A DNA stretch of 64,000 nt, taken from NCBI GenBank assembly GCA_016188865.1, contig JACPGX010000005.1, positions 9,188-73,187 of the forward strand. Direction: 5' to 3'. The notes beneath the pieces were generated by a model. That model had not been told where the DNA came from. It was given only the letters and a program-made list of their open reading frames with translations, and ran no database searches. This DNA comes from Candidatus Nealsonbacteria bacterium. Lineage in GTDB: Bacteria > Patescibacteriota > Minisyncoccia > Minisyncoccales > MHMH01. Positions 8,794 through 28,678 of this stretch are shown here, one piece after another (within the stretch, counting starts at the first letter, position 1; every line of letters starts with the position of its first letter). Made by a program: the position numbers and the translations under genes.

Positions 8794-9348
8794 ATGATTA
8801 AAAAAATAGTTTTGGCGGTTGTGGTTTTGGGCCTTTCAGCCGGAGGTTTTTTTTATTGGTGGAATAACCAAGCTGATGTAAGGGGGTTAAATAAGACTTT
8901 GCCCGATGGCGTGAGAGTTGTAAAAAGTTTATATGGCAACGAATATAAAGTCATCAACAAAATCGACGGCTACGAGTTTAAGGTGCCGCGGGAGTGGAGG
9001 GGAATAAATGAAGTTGCGTATATTCCAGAGAGGGGAGAAGAAGGGTACACATTGTCTAGTATTGAATTAGAAGGCAGAGAAGAAAGTAGCAGAATCGTAG
9101 TTATGAATCGTTTTGAAGGAAATGATGAAATTTTAAGGATTTGGGTAGAGAAAAACTTTAAAACTTTCGGTTTAGTCGGAAATTTTAATGAAGATAAGGT
9201 GGGAGAACTTGATATAGTAAAGATACAAGAGAACGTACATTTGGGTGGTATGTATGTATATTTTTTCAAAAAAGATTCGTCAATTTACTCCATAACTAAC
9301 GGTTCAGAAGAATTTATTAAATATATTATTATTAATGGTAAATGGTAA
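8794..9348 (+). CDS. Hypothetical exported or membrane-anchored protein
   Basis: N-terminal hydrophobic segment IVLAVVVLGLSAGGFFYWW. No motif recognised. Confidence 0.5.
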   Translation: MIKKIVLAVVVLGLSAGGFFYWWNNQADVRGLNKTLPDGVRVVKSLYGNEYKVINKIDGYEFKVPREWRGINEVAYIPERGEEGYTLSSIELEGREESSRIVVMNRFEGNDEILRIWVEKNFKTFGLVGNFNEDKVGELDIVKIQENVHLGGMYVYFFKKDSSIYSITNGSEEFIKYIIINGKW

Positions 9349-12300
9349 TTTTTCAACTGAATTTCTAAATAAAAAGTTGGGAACGTTTTTAGCAGTGATT
9401 ACAATATTTGTAATCACTGTTTTGTTTACAGGCAATTCAGTTTTTGCGGCAAAAATGAAAATCAGCGAGCAGGAAGTTGAGAGAATCAAAACAGCCCTAG
9501 GCTTTGTTAGCACTGTTTCAAATATCGGAAGCATTATTCTTGATGGAGGAAATCTTACAACCATTTTAAATACAGCTATCAGCGGCGGGCGAACAGCTAC
9601 TGATGCTACCTACGGCCTGCTTGTTTTGAGCGCGATTAATGAGATGGAATTTATGGATTTGGTGCTTTCGCAGGAATATAAAGATATAGCAATAAATTAT
9701 TTCACAAAAGTTTTAGATGAAAGAACTAATTTACGTTCTTATTGGAAGGGAGTTGGTTTTGATATGCCGAGAGTAGTAGCGGGAACTATTAATAGTCCGA
9801 TAGGAGCTCTAACTTTAAATACTTTTGAAATGACCGATAAGGTTATTTCAATACTTACAGCTTTTAATAATTTGCAAACAGGAATAAGATACGACGGCTT
9901 GTGGTATTATTTTGATTTTAGGAGGGGTGGCGATTCACACGAGGAAGCGTGGGCATTAGTGGAAGAGCAAATGGGCTGGGCGGCAAAGCCAAATCCTTTT
10001 ATGCCTCAAAAATTAACAAAAAATAATTATCCTCAACTCGAGCAGCAATTTGCCGCTCTTTGGTATAAATATGGTCCCCACGTTACATCCCAAGGCCTTA
10101 GCCAAAAGTACAAAGAGCAAGTTAAAAGCGATTTGCGCCAAACTTTAGCCACCGCCATAGAAGAAAATACACGGGTGCAACCCGTGTATGTCAAGGAGGT
10201 GTCGGCTTGGGATAAGCTTTTGGCCCAGCTGGAAAAAATAAAAAATAATTTGATCAAACTAACTTCTCGGATTTGGTATTTTGCAGCCGGCCCCATAGTC
10301 AAGCTCGAAAAGAATATTGTTAACACTGACGCAACCTCCAAGGTTGATGAAGAAACCTCGGATATTGAAGCGCCAGAGATTAATGTGCCAGAGTTTATCC
10401 TTGAATCTACTGAAATCGCGGATAACGGACTCCCGCAAGCTCCGCAAGCTGAAGAGGCGGAGAAAATAATGGATATCGGATATCCATTAACTCATCCATT
10501 AATTGTAGAGGTTGAACCTCCCTCCGTTGTGGTTCAACCTTCTTTGCCTGAACTTCAGTTATGCGAGAGGGGACTAGCGGGTGCGGCTAGGCAATATCGC
10601 GCGCTTATTAACGAAGTAGCTTGGATGGGTGATAAAGAATCCACCAGCAACGAATGGATAGAGTTGAAAAATATCTTTGGCTTGCCATTAAATCTTCAGG
10701 GATGGCAGATGCAGGATAAAGATCAGCAGATTAAAAAAAATTTTAGCGCAGAAGATATTATTCCAGTTAATGGCTATATTCTTTTGCAACGCACTAAAGA
10801 TTATTCGGGCGCTTTAAATAACACCGATGAAGCTCTTTATCTTTTTGACAATAACTGTCAATTAGAAGACGAAGTTTTAGCAAATTTTGATTGGCCAGCT
10901 GGCAACAACGTTGAGAAAAAACCAATGCAAAGATATGATGGTTTGTATTGGTACACCCAAGAAGCAACTCCCGGAGCAGAAAACCTTGCTCCTCTTTCGC
11001 CAATTTACAGCAGCGGCGCAACTCCCGCGTCAACTCCCGCACCCCAGCCCTCTGCACCTTCAAATTTGCCATCATTTACAGTATTAATTAACGAAATTGC
11101 TTGGTCGGGCACTAAAGCCAATTCAGCTGACGAATGGCTTGAGCTTTACAACACCACTAATTCAACCATTGATTTAGTCGGCTGGACATTAAAAGCCGCA
11201 GATGATGCTCCTTCCCTCACTTTTTCAACATCAAGTATTCCAGCCAAGGGATATTTTCTTTTGGAAAGAACCGATGATACAACGGTCAACGATATTTCAG
11301 CCGATTTTATTTATACTGGAGCTTTAGGCAATGATGGCGAGAAATTGGAATTAAGAGATGCTGGCGGAAATTTAATTGATTTTATTGATAATTCGTCCGG
11401 CTGGGCTGCCGGCCAAGCTTCGCCCAACTATATTTCCATGGAAAGAGTGAATTCTTCAACTTGGGCCGGCAATAATCGCATTAGCCGCAATGGCTTAGAT
11501 GCTGACGGCAATCAAATCAATGGCACGCCAAGAGCAGAAAACAGCGTTTCTAAATCTTCCACGCAGATCCCTTCTAATTTTACCATTACCGAAGACTTAA
11601 CCCTGACTTATTTGGGCAGTCCTTATTTAGTGGAAGGGTCTTTTTTTGTTTCGGGCGCTAAGCTGACAATTGAGCCCGGCGTAACAGTCAAATTCAAACA
11701 CGTTGGCTCTAATAATCAAAATGCTTTGCTGAAAGTAGAAGATGGCACCTTAGAAGCTGTAGGAACAGCCAGCCAAAAAATTACTTTTACTTCTTCCATC
11801 ACCCAACCAGCTGCTGGCGACTGGGACGGGCTTTATCTTAAAAATTCCAACTCGACTATAAATAATGCGGTTATCAACTACGGCGGCAAACTGCACCAGC
11901 CATGTTGTTATGAATGGACTCCTTACACTTTCGGAGCCGTTTACATAGACGGAGGCAACGCCCAAATTATCAATTCTTTAATTGAAAAGAGCGGTACTTT
12001 CGGCTTGTGGCTTAAAAATTCCACTACCACGCAAATTGCCAGCAGTGAATTTAAAGATAATCAAGGAGCCGACTATAACGGCAAGGCAGCAGCTGTGCTG
12101 ATTGAAAATAGCAATCCCACCATTAAAGATTCGATCTTTTCAGGCAATACAGTCGGCATTTTGGCGGAGAATTATTCTTCCCCCGCCGTAAGAGACAACC
12201 AATTTATTCAAAATACCACGCCAATTCAAATTACCAGCCTTTTAACCGACATTAGCGGCAACACTTTTCAGAATAATAATATTGACGGAGTTTTGGTGGC

Positions 12301-17304: not shown

Positions 17305-17571
17305 TCCGCGGTGGCGCAATGGTAGCGCGGCTCGCTGTAGTAAATGCAGCTCCCTAAGGAAACTTAAGGATGAAATTTCTGGGATAACGGTGGAACCCTT
17401 ATGGGGTAATACCGTGGGAACCCCCTCCTCCAGAGGAGGGGGGCACCGTAGAGACTAGATACCAGAACACCTAAAACAGAAACGTTATGGTGAAGATATA
17501 GTCCACTCCTAAAAGTAATTTTAGGGCATAGTGTAACGAGAAGGTTGCAGGTTCGAATCCTGCCCGCGGAG
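17305..17571 (+). tRNA. tRNA-Asn (GUU) interrupted by a group I intron (exons 17305-17338 and 17534-17571)
   Basis: Spliced product is 72 nt: TCCGCGG TG GCGC AATGGTA GCGC G GCTCG CTGT|TAA CGAGA AGGTT GCAGG TTCGAAT CCTGC CCGCGGA G. U1-A72 and G73 are typical of bacterial tRNA-Asn. No encoded CCA. Confidence 0.85.
17339..17533 (+). ncRNA. Group I intron (195 nt, no ORF) in the anticodon loop
   Basis: P1 is GCUGU|..GCAGC with a U.G at the splice site. P3 UUCUGG/CCAGAA. P4 ACGGUG/CACCGU. P7 ACUAGAU/AUAUAGU within the conserved GUAGAGACUAGA and AGAUAUAGUCC blocks. P8 CACC/GGUG. P9 CCUAAAA-guaa-UUUUAGG. Terminal omega-G at 17533. Confidence 0.85.
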
Positions 17572-17586
17572 CGCAACGGCGAAAGA

Positions 17587-17609
17587 GCCGCCCGAATGGG
17601 CGGCTTTTT
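17587..17609 (+). terminator. Intrinsic terminator after tRNA-Asn
   Basis: GCCGCCC-gaat-GGGCGGC followed by TTTTT. Confidence 0.85.
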
Positions 17610-17691
17610 AGTCCTTGCCCTTGCCCCACCCGCCCGTGCGCGGGCAACAGATTTACTCCCATTGCCTCAAAGTTATCCACAGTTGACGCCC

Positions 17692-17720
17692 TTGTCTGTT
17701 CTATAAATGTTCTATATAAT
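17692..17720 (+). promoter_or_regulatory. Putative promoter with embedded GTTC-N7-GTTC direct repeat (candidate LexA box)
   Basis: TTGTCT (17692-17697), then a 17-nt spacer made of GTTCtataaatGTTC (17698-17712) plus ta, then TATAAT (17715-17720). The ATG lies 8 nt after the -10 box with no SD, so the mRNA looks leaderless. Confidence 0.5.
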
Positions 17721-17728
17721 ATAATAAT

Positions 17729-19180
17729 ATGCTTACCAAAAGACAAAAACAGATTTTTGAATACGTAAAAAAATATATTGAAAAAAAGGATTACGCCCCT
17801 TCTTTTGAAGACATAAGAAAGCATTTTAGATTAGCTTCGAGATCTACCGTTCATCACCACATAGAGGCCTTAGAAGAGAAAGGATATTTAAATAAATTTG
17901 GCAGCCGAGCCCGTGCTATAGAAATTATAAAAAATAAAGGATCTTCATTTTTGGTTAATGTTCCGCTACTTGGAACAATAGCCGCGGGTCAACCGATAGA
18001 GGCGATTGAAAATAAAGAAATAATTGCGGTGCCGAAAGATAAGATTCATTATTCGGAAGAAGTCTATGCTTTAAGGGTGGCCGGCAATAGTATGATTGAC
18101 GAAAATATTAATAATGGAGATATTATTCTGGTGAGACACCAAGAAACTGCCGAAAATGGGCAAAAAATTGTTGCTTTGATAGATAATCACGAGGCGACAC
18201 TTAAAAAATATTATCGAGAGGGAGGGCATATCCGTTTACAGCCGGCCAACAAGAGCATGGAACCGATTATTCTTCGAAATGGTCGTGATATTTCCATACA
18301 AGGAGTAGTTCTCGACGTTATCAGGGGTCTTGGCACGTTTCCTTCCGAAAATGTTTTACCGGATGAGTTAATAAAACAAGTAAAATCTAAAAATAGTGCT
18401 CCATATTTTAAAATGAATAACCTTGAAATATATAAAGAGGATATTCTTAAAATTAGTTCAATCCCCGATAATTCAGTTGATCTGATTGTTACTTCGCCGC
18501 CCTACAACGTAGATATTCATTACAATTCCCATGCAGATAATTTAACTTACGATGATTATCTAGAATTTACCAGAAAGTGGATTAAAAAGTGTTTTGATTT
18601 AGCAAAAAGTGAGGGACGATTTTTGCTGAATATCCCACTTGATAAAAATAAGGGTGGCCAAAAATCAGTTGGGGCAGATATTACTAAAATTGCAAAAGAT
18701 ATTGGCTGGAAATATCACTCAACAATTGTCTGGAATGAAGGAAATATATCTCGCCGCACCGCTTGGGGTTCGTTTATGTCCGCTTCCGCCCCATATGTTA
18801 TTGCTCCGGTGGAATTGATTTTAGTTTTATACAAAGATAGTTGGAAAAAAACAGGCGGCAGTAGGAAAAACGATATCACAAAGCAAGAGTTTATGGACTG
18901 GACTAATGGAGTTTGGACTTTCAATGGCCAAAGCAAAAAGGGGGCAGGTGGCCACCCCGCGCCATTTCCGATTGAGTTGCCAAGGAGATGTATCAAATTA
19001 TTCAGTTTCATTGGCGACACGGTTCTAGACCCATTTTTGGGCAGCGGTTCAACATTAATCGCTTCTTACCTGCACGATAGAAAAGGGATTGGCGTTGACA
19101 TTGATGAAAAGTATTGTAAGATTGCTATAGAGCGGTTGCAACAGGAAGGTAAAATAAATCAAAAAAGTTTATTAAAATAA
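17729..19180 (+). CDS. LexA repressor (wHTH + S24 peptidase) fused to a beta-class N4/N6 DNA methyltransferase
   Basis: aa 1-200 form a full LexA: wHTH STVHHHIEALEEKGYL, cleavage site TIAA|GQP, Ser in VAGNSM, Lys in ATLKKY. aa 229-483 form the MTase: MNNLEIYKEDIL.., motif IV DLIVTSPPYN, HPAPFPIELP, motif I VLDPFLGSGST. The track shows one continuous 483-aa ORF. Confidence 0.8.
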   Translation: MLTKRQKQIFEYVKKYIEKKDYAPSFEDIRKHFRLASRSTVHHHIEALEEKGYLNKFGSRARAIEIIKNKGSSFLVNVPLLGTIAAGQPIEAIENKEIIAVPKDKIHYSEEVYALRVAGNSMIDENINNGDIILVRHQETAENGQKIVALIDNHEATLKKYYREGGHIRLQPANKSMEPIILRNGRDISIQGVVLDVIRGLGTFPSENVLPDELIKQVKSKNSAPYFKMNNLEIYKEDILKISSIPDNSVDLIVTSPPYNVDIHYNSHADNLTYDDYLEFTRKWIKKCFDLAKSEGRFLLNIPLDKNKGGQKSVGADITKIAKDIGWKYHSTIVWNEGNISRRTAWGSFMSASAPYVIAPVELILVLYKDSWKKTGGSRKNDITKQEFMDWTNGVWTFNGQSKKGAGGHPAPFPIELPRRCIKLFSFIGDTVLDPFLGSGSTLIASYLHDRKGIGVDIDEKYCKIAIERLQQEGKINQKSLLK

Positions 19181-19184
19181 CGCC

Positions 19185-19784
19185 ATGAAAAAGGATAAAA
19201 GAAAAAATAATCACGTTCAAAAAGACCTCATTATTGAGTTCTTTAAGAAGAATCCAAGCCGAGACATAAAACATCCCGAAGTCGTTGATTGGGTAGTGGC
19301 GACCTACAAAAAGAGAACGGGAAATGTTTTTCGCGATCCCGACAGGTCAATTCGTCAATTGGCACAAAGTGGATTTTTAATAAAAATCGCTAAAGGAATT
19401 TATAAATATGATCCTCAAAAGGCCCATAAAAGAGAGTTGGAGGATTTTACCGCTGCGCAAAAAGAAGTAATTCTTAAAAGAGACGGCTATAAATGTGTTA
19501 TTTGTGGTAGAGGTAAAAAAGACGGCGTTGATTTACATATTGACCATATAAAGCCAAAAGATTTTGGCGGCGAGGCCACAATTGAAAACGGCCAAACATT
19601 ATGTTCACAGCATAATTTTATCAAAAAGAATTTAAAGCAAACCGAGACCGGGAAAAAGATGTTTATCCGTCTCTACGAATTAGCAAAGAGTGAGGGAAAC
19701 GATGAATTAAAAAAGTTTTGCGCCGATATTCTGGAAACCTATGAGAAATATAATATAAATGGCCATATTATATGGAAAAGGTAG
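19185..19784 (+). CDS. HNH endonuclease (candidate restriction enzyme partner)
   Basis: CVICGRGKKDGVDLHIDHIKPKDFGGEATIENGQTLCSQHN. Begins 4 nt after the MTase stop. The N-terminal ~90 aa are unassigned and may be a recognition domain. Confidence 0.8.
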   Translation: MKKDKRKNNHVQKDLIIEFFKKNPSRDIKHPEVVDWVVATYKKRTGNVFRDPDRSIRQLAQSGFLIKIAKGIYKYDPQKAHKRELEDFTAAQKEVILKRDGYKCVICGRGKKDGVDLHIDHIKPKDFGGEATIENGQTLCSQHNFIKKNLKQTETGKKMFIRLYELAKSEGNDELKKFCADILETYEKYNINGHIIWKR

Positions 19785-27838: not shown

Positions 27839-28678
27839 ATGAAAGAAATAATGATTAAAAAGGCTTCTGGCGAGATGGAGCCATTTTCCGAAGACAAGCT
27901 TAGGGAATCGCTTAAAAAAGCGCAAGCATTGCCTGAAATTATTAACGAAATTGTTGAGCAAATAGTTTCCGGGCTTAAGGATGGCGCTTCGACTTCTGAT
28001 ATTTATCATCGCGCCTTTTCATTGCTGCGCAAAAAGCATCGTTTTGCCGCCGGCCGTTATCGCTTGAAAAATGCCATTATGGAATTGGGGCCGACCGGCT
28101 ATCCTTTTGAAAGATTCGTAGCCGAAATTTTAAAATCGCAGGGATTTTCCGTTGAAGTTGGTAAAATCGTTCAAGGAGCTTGCGTTACCCACGAATTAGA
28201 TATTATTGCCATGAAAAATAACCGGCACATTATGGTGGAGTGCAAATTTCATAACCAGGCAGGAATTAAGTCGGATGTCAAAACTGCTCTTTACGTGCAG
28301 GCGCGGTTTGAAGATTTAAAAAAGAGATGGCAAGTACAGCCCGGCCATGGAGAAAAATTACATCAAGCTTGGCTTGTTACTAATACAAAACTTACCTCTG
28401 ATGCAATTAAATACGCCAATTGCGTTGGCATTAACGTAATTGGCTGGAGTCATCCTCCGGGAGAAAGTTTGCAGGATTTGATAGAAGAATCAGGGCTGCA
28501 CCCCTTAACTTCGCTTACTGCATTAAGCTTATCGCAAAAGCGGCAATTATTAGAACGAGGACTTATACTTTGCAAAGACATTCTTGATAATAAGAATTTG
28601 CTTCCGGCGGTAGGCGTTAATGAAGCGAAAATATCTTTTGTTTTGAAAGAAATCGAAGAATTATGTAAGCTACAATAA
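27839..28678 (+). CDS. ATP-cone domain fused to a restriction-endonuclease-like (Mrr/PD-(D/E)xK) domain
   Basis: N-terminus IKKASGEMEPFSEDKLRESL is an ATP-cone. FERFVAEILKSQGF..HELDIIAM..IMVECKFH is a PD-(D/E)xK core. Confidence 0.7.
   Translation: MKEIMIKKASGEMEPFSEDKLRESLKKAQALPEIINEIVEQIVSGLKDGASTSDIYHRAFSLLRKKHRFAAGRYRLKNAIMELGPTGYPFERFVAEILKSQGFSVEVGKIVQGACVTHELDIIAMKNNRHIMVECKFHNQAGIKSDVKTALYVQARFEDLKKRWQVQPGHGEKLHQAWLVTNTKLTSDAIKYANCVGINVIGWSHPPGESLQDLIEESGLHPLTSLTALSLSQKRQLLERGLILCKDILDNKNLLPAVGVNEAKISFVLKEIEELCKLQ

Follow-up and report, generated by a model that had tools for sequence, protein, structure and literature searches.

A complete LexA fused in frame to a Type II DNA methyltransferase in Patescibacteria: a probable cleavable autorepressor of a restriction–modification operon

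Introduction

In restriction–modification (R-M) systems the methylase has to stay ahead of the nuclease, and the known solutions to this problem are C proteins, methylases bearing a helix-turn-helix (HTH) and antisense RNAs. Repressors of the S24 family are familiar from mobile elements (lambda CI, SetR of SXT), and defence systems have damage-responsive regulators of their own, such as CapH/CapP of CBASS. Patescibacteria, to our knowledge, largely lack CRISPR. That a DNA methyltransferase (MTase) can repress its own promoter by means of an N-terminal HTH is well established for the SsoII, Ecl18kI, EcoRII, MspI and ScrFI types (PMC3874152). The LexA of Patescibacteria is presented as a direct-repeat case in the passage of PMC7739468 that cites Sanchez-Osuna, Barbe and Erill 2017.

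Here we describe a gene in which a complete LexA and an MTase form one protein. It lies in a stretch of 64,000 nucleotides from Candidatus Nealsonbacteria, the whole of which was analysed and is called the window below, and it is one example of a widespread LexA::MTase design in Patescibacteria, which are tiny uncultured bacteria.

Results

The LexA–methyltransferase fusion gene

The fusion gene occupies positions 17729..19180 on the plus strand, as do all features of this section, and is a single uninterrupted ORF of 483 codons plus stop, just as an earlier note on this DNA had read it. An HMM scan matched LexA_DNA_bind, Peptidase_S24, N6_N4_Mtase and, in the following gene, HNH. The winged-HTH (wHTH) DNA-binding domain of LexA covers aa 2-63 (17732..17917; PF01726, LexA_DNA_bind, 64 bits) and the Peptidase S24 self-cleavage and dimerisation domain aa 79-194 (17963..18310; PF00717, 106 bits); by NCBIfam TIGR00498 the head is a LexA equivalog (198 bits, cut-off 111). 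The predicted cleavage site Ala86-Gly87 (17984-17989) falls within the S24 domain, and the Ser/Lys dyad consists of Ser121 (18089-18091) and Lys159 (18203-18205). The recognition helix of the wHTH reads S-T-V-H42-H43-H44.

A junction at aa 202-224 (18332..18400), a variable leader, connects the LexA C-terminus to the conserved MTase core. The beta-class DNA methyltransferase module that follows (aa 225-483, 18401..19177; PF01555, 151 bits) opens with an invariant PYF motif (aa 225-227). N6_N4_Mtase (PF01555) spans aa 250-467 of the fusion in the Pfam scan, aa 225-472 match the PADLOC Type II MTase model (MTase_II, PDLC03353) with 318 bits, and the closest solved structures are 2zie and the N4C MTases 8s9m and 8s9n. 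Motif IV SPPY (aa 256-259, 18494-18505) suggests N4-cytosine specificity; motif I, the AdoMet-binding FxGxG, is DPFLGSGS at aa 434-441 (19028-19051). Every residue and motif position given in the earlier note proved exact (A86/G87, S121, K159, M229, DLIVTSPPYN at 251-260, FPIELP at 413-418 and DPFLGSGS at 434-441). Structure models of the fusion and of the HNH protein are too poor to help: the AF2 model of the fusion has a pLDDT of 58 overall, with the LexA head alone confident, about 80 in the wHTH region and low confidence at the junction, and the AlphaFold model of the HNH protein has a pLDDT of 64. A Foldseek search against the PDB returned nothing at E ≤0.001, its only matches being winged-helix ones to the HNH N-terminus.

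The in-frame fusion is real and not an assembly error. That an indel had joined two separate genes could be entertained because the junction is AT-rich (31% GC) and unfused neighbours are known in other lineages, and the earlier note had raised it as a caveat. It is excluded because the identical 483-aa ORF stands in GenBank (MBI2450449.1, from a Candidatus Nealsonbacteria MAG), the same ORF recurs in three independent assemblies from separate runs (SRR12113419/20/22), and >100 homolog clusters (53-96% identity) hold all three domains in one ORF, each in frame across a junction of differing sequence. With 71 further fused loci bearing other MTases, we regard an artefact as effectively refuted, its residual probability being vanishingly small.

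Nucleotide homology with the closest lexA relatives stops at 18321-18334, and homology with unfused MTase cassettes begins at about 18381-18404. Two earlier suppositions about this stretch were mistaken. Met229 is not the native start of the MTase, since it is not conserved and standalone homologs start about 20-28 aa upstream; and the linker is no intergenic remnant but the native N-terminal leader of the MTase.

Promoter and predicted operator

The gene is preceded by a sigma-70-type promoter on the same strand (17692..17720; consensus scan 10/12), with a -35 box TTGTCT at 17692-17697 and, after a 17-nt spacer, a -10 box TATAAT at 17715-17720. The predicted LexA operator, GTTCTAT-N4-GTTCTAT with a period of 11 (GTTCTATAAATGTTCTAT, 17698..17715, plus strand), fills the spacer and overlaps the -10 box. 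Because the start codon stands 8 nt downstream of the -10 box, the transcript is leaderless or nearly so. This arrangement had been recognised correctly from the outset. Among 71 related promoters, 26 likewise have at most 20 nt between operator end and start codon.

At 0 mismatches, the operator repeat is single-copy in the window. Across the clade, 69 of the 83 non-redundant lexA-head promoters contain a period-11 direct repeat, compared with 0.5-0.6% of shuffled or random windows. The two half-sites change together between lineages, and the half-site co-varies with the recognition helix: H-F/H/Y-H goes with TCTAT, H-Q-H with TCGGT and H-E-H with TCGGG. As would be looked for in a LexA, the gene thus has a predicted autoregulatory operator in its own promoter, and both the conservation of the direct repeat and its co-variation with the helix argue for the LexA box that the earlier note had proposed. 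Its likeness to the alphaproteobacterial GTTC-N7-GTTC is confined to geometry; the DNA, however, does not come from an alphaproteobacterium, and its box consists of 7-nt half-sites at a period of 11.

We see no support for a wider SOS regulon, since no second operator was found near any other gene in the 64-kb window or in about 1.9 Mb of related loci, and one related locus (L108) contains recA itself with no operator at its promoter. The ribonucleotide reductase gene of another (L166) has none either; its promoter does have a DnaA-box-like motif. Two further ideas were discarded. A perfect second operator past a convergent TaqI-family gene (L135, L136, L157, L143) falls within the gene of an 85-aa C protein, and we rejected it because only that coding sequence keeps it conserved. 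Operators were also inspected by eye for the R-M site of their own system, such as the TCGA of TTTCGAT, but operator type is not associated with MTase cluster.

Just upstream of the promoter lies TTATCCACA (17673..17681, plus strand), a consensus DnaA-box-like 9-mer and the only exact copy in the window. Of the 83 non-redundant lexA heads, 55 have the exact 9-mer within 90 nt upstream, or 68 if the pattern is relaxed, and the 1.9 Mb of loci contain 112 exact copies, 71 of them at lexA heads. Further copies precede dnaN, mraZ and a ribonucleotide reductase gene.

The HNH nuclease and its cassette

Four nucleotides past the stop of the fusion begins, as first noted, the gene for a 199-aa HNH nuclease, the presumed restriction enzyme (19185..19784, plus strand; PF01844 and PF14279). 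The protein has an HNH core at aa 104-142 (the PF01844 match) and, going by its low-confidence model, a winged-helix-like N-terminal domain at aa 8-75. It matches PADLOC REase_II weakly (23.6 bits), and some homologs are named ‘predicted restriction endonuclease’ by JGI. The proposal that it is the partner nuclease of the MTase is supported by comparison, since about 70 of 80 loci, drawn from many phyla, have the HNH gene directly downstream of the MTase. The locus therefore has the marks of a Type II R-M system, namely the (D/S)PPY and FxGxG motifs in the MTase and an adjacent, co-inherited endonuclease. The HNH gene could also be transcribed independently, from a promoter-like site within the 3′ end of the MTase (19095-19122).

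MTase and HNH together form a mobile two-gene cassette (18381..19784, plus strand), delimited by nucleotide homology to unfused copies elsewhere; blastn against 80 loci found no homology past the HNH stop. The cassette has at least 587 genome matches at 67-89% amino-acid identity, its hosts being Patescibacteria, Omnitrophota, Elusimicrobiota, Proteobacteria, Dehalococcoidia and DPANN archaea, and the pair is found unfused to LexA in many phyla. Intermediate states exist as well: in two loci (L009 and L027), lexA, M and HNH are separate genes with gaps of 15-17 nt. A dN/dS comparison of the LexA half with the MTase and HNH halves, meant to compare their ages, found synonymous sites saturated in all parts (pS 0.6-0.9); the 85-90% identity of the MTases hence reflects constraint.

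These observations allow for a passive origin, in which the 3′ flank of an ordinary SOS lexA is a landing hotspot for promoter-less R-M cassettes, loss of the stop codon is near-neutral, LexA goes on acting as the usual SOS repressor, and the MTase gains transcription and nothing else. Indeed, no promoter, integrase or terminal repeats could be detected in the cassette, whose homology stops precisely at the gene borders, unfused lexA, M and R states are on record, saturation makes the fusions undatable, and the window around it is ordinary chromosome (dnaG, rpoD, a tRNA gene, TspO). The tRNA lies upstream, and its computationally spliced versions gave ambiguous anticodons in ARAGORN. We consider a passenger fusion unlikely in view of the survey that follows.

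LexA heads with exchanged methyltransferases

In 71 of the 73 resolvable metagenome loci of the Patescibacteria LexA clade, LexA is fused to an MTase, and these MTases fall into 13 clusters. An exhaustive index-free search found about 34 of 45 close representatives to be at least 390 aa long, and we take the prevalence of the fusion from this search and the contig survey. Another homolog search that seemed to return mostly standalone LexAs was set aside, as it omitted even a 96%-identical fusion and was biased against long targets. A Pfam scan of 23 partners identified every one as a DNA MTase and placed them in five unrelated families (N6_N4, MT-A70, N6_Mtase/Eco57I, C5 and Dam-like). Across the heads the MTase part is 230-690 aa long. 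Most partners adjoin identifiable Type II restriction enzymes, including members of the TaqI, BglII, MunI, AlwI, BsaWI, MutH-like, EndoVII-like and DpnI families.

The LexA of Patescibacteria is reportedly the subject of the 2017 article by Sanchez-Osuna et al. (Environ Microbiol 19:3465). Full-text searches outside that article found no earlier description of LexA-MTase fusions. Far from being an isolated case, the fusion of the window stands for an architecture shared across the clade.

Gly87, Ser121 and Lys159 are present in all 91 LexA heads, and Ala86 in 90 of them. This invariance speaks for a self-cleavage site at which the DNA-binding domain would be cut off; substitution of Ser121 or Lys159 among homologs, which the earlier note had named as evidence to the contrary, is found in none of the 91. 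LexA lineages and MTase types are related many-to-many. There is a sharp break of homology at the LexA C-terminus. We rejected MTase swapping by recombination inside lexA because of this breakpoint and because heads that share an MTase type are just 3-4 points more similar, in every LexA region alike. A single contig in the clade has two heads, 61% identical, with different operators and helices, each fronting its own restriction module. A given head may therefore be a dedicated R-M regulator rather than an SOS master.

A passenger fusion is hard to reconcile with this pattern. LexA has repeatedly become joined to MTases of five unrelated families, in at least 13 clusters, and the reading frame has been preserved although partners turn over rapidly. 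DpnI, placed directly after lexA with a gap of 5-22 nt, is never fused, so that fusion is specific to the MTase. Moreover, a single housekeeping LexA would not account for a genome in which two heads have orthogonal operators.

The position of the nuclease varies. In the window and in the AlwI, MutH-like and DpnI modules it points the same way as lexA and apparently shares its transcript; in many sister systems it is convergent, and the TaqI type has its own C protein for R (in L135 at 9214..9471 of that locus, alongside the LexA::M fusion). LexA control of R is therefore not general. Restriction alleviation linked to SOS is known for Type I systems. LexA might similarly make the methylase, more than the nuclease, damage-inducible, so that new unmethylated sites arising from repair, recombination or transformation are methylated before they are cut. 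This would suit the majority of sister systems, in which the lexA promoter drives M alone and R is convergent with its own promoter or a C protein, but it sits badly with the co-directional modules, that of the window included, and with the lexA-DpnI modules, which have no methylase at all. We think it improbable, and more so than a passenger fusion.

Covalent fusion is not obviously needed for autoregulation alone. One account of it is a suicide or abortive-infection switch resembling a toxin–antitoxin system, in which RecA-triggered cleavage would destabilise the methylase while the nuclease persists or is induced, killing the damaged or infected cell. Such a switch would explain why the MTase alone, and never the restriction enzyme, is fused, and why the cleavage residues are invariant. 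The N-terminal cleavage fragment would end in ...GTIAA, which we take to resemble the C-termini recognised by ClpX; cleavage of E. coli LexA reportedly exposes degradation signals in its fragments, according to work of 2003 by Neher et al. There is also a parallel to protease-labile antitoxins that carry a DNA-binding domain (PMC3874152). Derepression after cleavage, however, would also raise new full-length MTase, and with M and R on one transcript in the window both should rise together. We judge the switch to be an outside chance, on a par with passenger fusion.

Discussion

The reading that we favour, with a probability of roughly 0.6, is that LexA serves as the cleavable autorepressor domain of the R-M methylase in a Type II operon that RecA-stimulated cleavage derepresses. 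The fusion protein would have two jobs, autorepressor and methyltransferase, in an operon with M first and HNH second. Its LexA head would dimerise through the S24 domain, each winged helix reading one GTTCTAT half-site, and would thereby repress its own near-leaderless transcript, the co-transcribed HNH gene included. Such autorepression would hold the methylase level steady, as the N-terminal HTH of SsoII/EcoRII-type methylases does. RecA on single-stranded DNA, whether from damage, phage replication or DNA uptake, would stimulate self-cleavage at Ala86-Gly87, which would part the DNA-binding domain from the S24-MTase body and derepress the operon. Across the clade, the head (promoter plus about 200 codons) is kept while MTase and neighbouring restriction enzyme are exchanged at the LexA C-terminus, and several heads could coexist without cross-talk because helix–operator pairs have diversified. 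The design probably ties R-M defence to DNA-damage signals; the ‘SOS-wired’ control of the earlier note, and likewise SOS induction, cleavage and DNA binding, we infer from sequence comparison.

A bolder version is tentative, and we would sooner bet against it than for it. Throughout a large clade of Patescibacteria, modular, RecA-cleavable and mutually orthogonal LexA heads would sit on R-M MTases of every class and make the balance of methylation and restriction a direct post-translational output of single-stranded DNA or damage, possibly as a switch, thrown by damage or phage, in which methylase loss unleashes the nuclease. ‘LexA’ would then perhaps no longer be primarily a regulator of SOS repair.

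If the favoured reading is true, a self-cleaving LexA head is a further way of keeping methylase ahead of nuclease, one that adds a DNA-damage or ssDNA input and puts R-M, a defence common among prokaryotes, in touch with RecA sensing where regulators are very few. The heads also offer a natural recognition code, helix residue 43 against half-site positions 4-7, in dozens of matched repressor–operator pairs that could serve as orthogonal, cleavable repressors, and they are a clear case of one regulatory domain repeatedly fused to five unrelated enzyme folds. For annotation, many Patescibacteria proteins listed in databases as ‘transcriptional repressor LexA’ are really R-M methyltransferases, with consequences for surveys of SOS regulons and defence systems.

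The fusion shares features with several known systems. Like lambda CI, SetR and CapH/CapP, it would couple a mobile or defence module to DNA damage through a damage-sensitive repressor; those are separate proteins, whereas here the repressor is covalently part of the module's enzyme, and its head is a LexA equivalog, unlike HTH_3-S24 proteins of the CI type. With C-protein R-M systems it has in common a dedicated HTH regulator with its own operator, whose diverged specificity insulates co-resident systems. C proteins, however, stand alone as small HTH_3 proteins, serve mainly to time R and are not cleavable, and here the regulator is fused to M; no free-standing HTH_3 controller ORF lies between 17600 and 19900. 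By analogy, a type II antitoxin too is one polypeptide that binds an operator, neutralises a toxic partner and carries a conditional proteolytic switch, although here neutralisation would come from DNA methylation instead of toxin binding and proteolysis from self-cleavage instead of Lon/Clp.

The head resembles canonical LexA (TIGR00498) in its wHTH, Ala-Gly site, Ser/Lys dyad and predicted autoregulatory box, and in box geometry and 11-nt period it resembles LexA proteins that bind direct repeats (GTTC-N7-GTTC in Alphaproteobacteria). It departs from canonical LexA in its C-terminal DNA MTase, in the possibility of several paralogous heads per genome with different operators, and in the absence of the operator from recA or other repair genes within the approximately 1.9 Mb searched.

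The SsoII type offers the nearest parallel, with a DNA-binding domain at the N-terminus of a Type II MTase and, in our case as a prediction, an operator overlapping the MTase's own promoter, so that the antidote MTase senses and limits its own level. Neither the SsoII-type regulatory region nor its C5 body was found in the fusion, the head being LexA and the body a beta-class N6_N4 MTase. Known members of that type are C5 MTases extended by a short HTH, whereas one LexA head is here combined with five MTase families, and R lies downstream or convergent, not divergent. Because the head is a complete LexA (wHTH plus S24 domain), its repression is also predicted to be RecA-reversible. The fusion would work like the SsoII-type HTH-MTases but is no member of their family.

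A LexA head fused in frame to a DNA methyltransferase

The window encodes, at 17729..19180 (+), one uninterrupted ORF of 483 codons with Pfam matches to LexA_DNA_bind (aa 2–63), Peptidase_S24 (aa 79–194) and N6_N4_Mtase (aa 250–467), and the NCBIfam LexA equivalog model scores it at 198 bits (cut-off, 111). These profile scans bear out the domain reading of the earlier note (LexA, S24 peptidase, methyltransferase (MTase)), whose residue and motif positions were all exact. A 199-aa HNH protein begins 4 nt past the fusion stop. An indel as the source of the fusion, about which that note had been cautious, is excluded: the same protein is deposited in GenBank on a 245-kb contig (MBI2450449.1, [quoted passage not shown]), identical proteins were recovered in three independent assemblies from different sequencing runs, and the three domains lie within a single ORF in > 100 homolog clusters (53–96% identity). 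Met229 had been proposed as the MTase start but is unconserved, and unfused homologs begin ~20–28 residues upstream; the invariant PYF motif (aa 225–227) opens the conserved MTase, and the alignment of the PADLOC Type II MTase model begins at aa 225. The linker, previously taken for an intergenic-like stretch, thus belongs to the MTase as its native N-terminal leader, which is variable. Predicted structure models were of too poor quality to contribute.

Judged by its residues, the LexA part (“head”) is a working LexA. Gly87, Ser121 and Lys159 are invariant in all 91 non-redundant heads, so that the substitutions of Ser121 or Lys159 that would have spoken against self-cleavage do not occur among them, and 90 have Ala86, the remaining one a UmuD-like Cys-Gly. 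A Daviesbacteria MAG (L009, 12254..12955 (+)) carries a second LexA-like gene directly after its lexA–M–HNH module (M, methyltransferase gene); the 233-aa product is 27% identical to the window's head and has a Cys-Gly cleavage site in place of Ala-Gly, as in UmuD.

Breadth of partners and restriction neighbours

In 80 metagenome loci, picked solely by peptides inside LexA, the LexA ORF is extended at its C-terminus by at least 150 aa in 71, is a complete standalone gene in two and is cut by the contig end in seven. Including the window type, the tails form 13 clusters with < 45% identity between them, and all 13 representatives are DNA MTases (12 N6_N4_Mtase, one MT-A70). The head alone, searched without an index against 1.84 billion representatives, led to the same result: about 34 of 45 close relatives (≥ 50% identity, full coverage) are proteins of 390–890 aa with LexA at residues 1–196, cluster counts being biased towards fusions because different partners split clusters; below ~48% identity, ordinary 200-aa LexAs predominate. 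The long proteins added gamma-class N6_Mtase/Eco57I with TaqI_C, C5 DNA_methylase and Dam-like MethyltransfD12 partners, and all 23 Pfam-scanned partners are DNA MTases, from five unrelated families. Named members belong to Patescibacteria lineages, plus one MAG labelled Omnitrophota, and are annotated as LexA or methyltransferase only.

Restriction enzymes neighbour the fusions either co-directionally (AlwI, MutH/Sau3AI-like and the window's HNH) or convergently, abutting the MTase 3′ end (TaqI, BglII, MunI, BsaWI-like, EndoVII/His-Me). The survey's two standalone lexA genes, and some further ones, have DpnI 5–22 nt downstream. In L081, a LexA with 87% identity to the window's head stands alone, and a different restriction-modification (R-M) system (a 423-aa MTase, a BsaWI-family enzyme and another MTase) begins 14–15 nt downstream. 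At L082 825..1910 (+), a standalone lexA (likewise 87% identical) overlaps a gene for a 361-aa protein with a weak winged-helix match, with small ORFs and a RecQ-family helicase beyond; here something other than an R-M system fills the place behind lexA. Directly upstream of a convergent TaqI-family restriction gene, L135 encodes an 85-aa HTH protein (9214..9471 (−)), also found at homologous positions in L136, L157 and L143, which looks like a controller (C) protein; these systems would therefore have both a C protein for R (the restriction gene) and a LexA fusion for M.

Predicted operator and recognition code

The window's promoter, TTGTCT-17-TATAAT (17692–17720 (+)), has its spacer filled by GTTCTAT-AAAT-GTTCTAT, and the ATG of the fusion gene lies 8 nt past the −10 box. 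Of the assignment of this GTTC-N7-GTTC box to the alphaproteobacterial type, only the geometry (an 11-nt period) holds, the host being a patescibacterium. A repeat NNTCNNN-N4-NNTCNNN with at least six of seven positions identical between halves occurs in 69 of 83 non-redundant head promoters, as against 0.5–0.6% of shuffled or random windows, and always adjoins the −10 box. Both half-sites shift together from lineage to lineage, and they follow the recognition-helix residue flanked by two histidines (F/H/Y with TCTAT, Q with TCGGT, E with TCGGG); such covariation is the signature of a predicted operator read by two identical monomers and co-evolved with its repressor. Apart from the lexA heads, no gene in the window or in ~1.9 Mb of loci, recA included, was found to carry this operator.

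Operator-to-start distance is bimodal across 71 heads (among them L002, L087, L143 and L157): 26 are near-leaderless and 45 have leaders of 20–60 nt, 20 of which contain a conserved AGTCAA 6–20 nt ahead of the start codon. At 17673–17681, just upstream of the window's operator, lies a consensus DnaA-box 9-mer (TGTGGATAA/TTATCCACA, either orientation); 55 of 83 head promoters (68 with a relaxed pattern; L001–L162) have it at this place next to their operator. Exact copies number 112 in 1.9 Mb, 71 of them at lexA-head promoters; others lie upstream of dnaN, of a ribonucleotide reductase gene and of one standalone M-HNH cassette, and clustered upstream of mraZ (non-head sites: L103 3483/3495; L031, L034, L037; L166 742). 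This distribution suggests a DnaA input into lexA-head promoters. About 60 nt before the HNH start, the MTase gene contains near its 3′ end a promoter-like TTGACA-16-TAAGAT (19095–19122 (+)), which could allow some LexA-independent transcription of the nuclease; because it falls in conserved coding sequence, conservation is no evidence for or against it.

Retained heads and exchanged bodies

LexA lineages and MTase clusters are related many-to-many: the nearest LexA neighbour has the same MTase type in 25 of 80 cases, and head pairs 85–97% identical share it 39% of the time. The window, L081 and L082 are 83–84% identical in nucleotides over a common block that begins ~60–110 nt ahead of the ATG and extends to LexA codon 198–202, past which homology ends abruptly, with unrelated flanks on both sides. 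No LexA region tracked MTase type in a region-wise comparison of heads. The head is thus kept, and the body changes right behind the C-terminus of LexA. On one 69-kb contig, two heads with 61% identity lie 7 kb from each other, one with lexA+DpnI (operator TTTCTAT twice, helix H-F-H), the other a window-type lexA::MTase+HNH (operator GTTCGTT/GTTCGGT, helix H-Q-H). A head need not, then, be the sole SOS regulator; the heads resemble a set of orthogonal controllers, each serving its own restriction module.

By distribution and borders, the MTase and HNH genes (18381..19784 (+)) are a mobile two-gene cassette. Homologs give at least 587 genome matches (67–89% amino-acid identity) in Patescibacteria, Omnitrophota, Elusimicrobiota, Nitrospirae, Proteobacteria, Dehalococcoidia and DPANN archaea, the HNH gene lies directly 3′ of the MTase in ~70 of 80 loci, and nucleotide homology to unfused cassettes runs from ~18381–18404 through the HNH stop and none beyond. 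A lexA lies immediately 5′ in 13 loci, mostly fused, on Patescibacteria-type contigs (a few labelled otherwise); L009 and L027 have lexA, M and HNH as separate genes with gaps of 15–17 nt, and L008 has a truncated lexA upstream. Synonymous sites are saturated in the fusion comparison, so the high conservation of the MTase reflects constraint and fusion dates are unobtainable.

An unfused M-HNH cassette lies immediately upstream of dnaG-rpoD on a Patescibacteria contig (L049 5069–9791), and dnaG, rpoD and TspO recur by lexA heads (L083, L118, L121, L135, L166), a hint that this part of the chromosome is loosely conserved in gene content. Between rpoD and lexA, the window has a tRNA gene (~17305–17575) split by a group I intron (17323–17525 (+); Rfam RF00028, 54 bits, E 6e-13), followed by a terminator hairpin (~17587–17609); neither ARAGORN nor the Rfam gathering scan of the window detected the split tRNA, and computational splicing gave ambiguous anticodons. 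At 27839..28678 (+), a 279-aa protein has an unusual combination of domains: an Mrr_cat restriction endonuclease together with an ATP-cone of the kind seen in NrdR and ribonucleotide reductases.

Proposed mechanism and relation to known systems

We infer the following mechanism from the architecture and its conservation, and from where the operator lies and how it covaries with the helix. As a dimer bound to the repeat across spacer and −10 box, the fusion would repress its own near-leaderless mRNA; in the window, this mRNA would include the HNH gene. When RecA stimulates cleavage between Ala86 and Gly87, the DNA-binding domain would be lost and the operon freed from repression. In the fusions surveyed, the partner is always a methylase and never a nuclease, which argues against the MTase being a neutral passenger on LexA and at the same time keeps alive a toxin-antitoxin-like model in which LexA cleavage destabilises the methylase. 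Weak points of this mechanism are the missing operator at recA or other genes in the loci searched, the promoter-like site near the MTase 3′ end, and sister systems in many of which R is convergent and, in the TaqI type, has its own putative C protein.

A full-text literature search found no description of LexA–MTase fusions; a 2017 paper on the Patescibacteria SOS network, outside its reach, may mention long lexA genes and is cited elsewhere as a direct-repeat LexA case. What makes the fusions significant is how broad and modular the family is, together with its recognition code and the link between R-M and RecA signalling that it implies. In the standard review of how R-M is regulated, LexA is named for toxin-antitoxin systems only (PMC3874152). 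Control of R-M through a DNA-binding domain on the methylase is a known principle, of which the LexA fusion is a variant: methylases with an N-terminal HTH (EcoRII, SsoII, Ecl18kI, ScrFI; PMC3874152) work in the same way, whereas the LexA fusion would add a proteolytic input. C proteins form incompatibility groups, and the heads resemble them as insulated controllers, one per restriction module.
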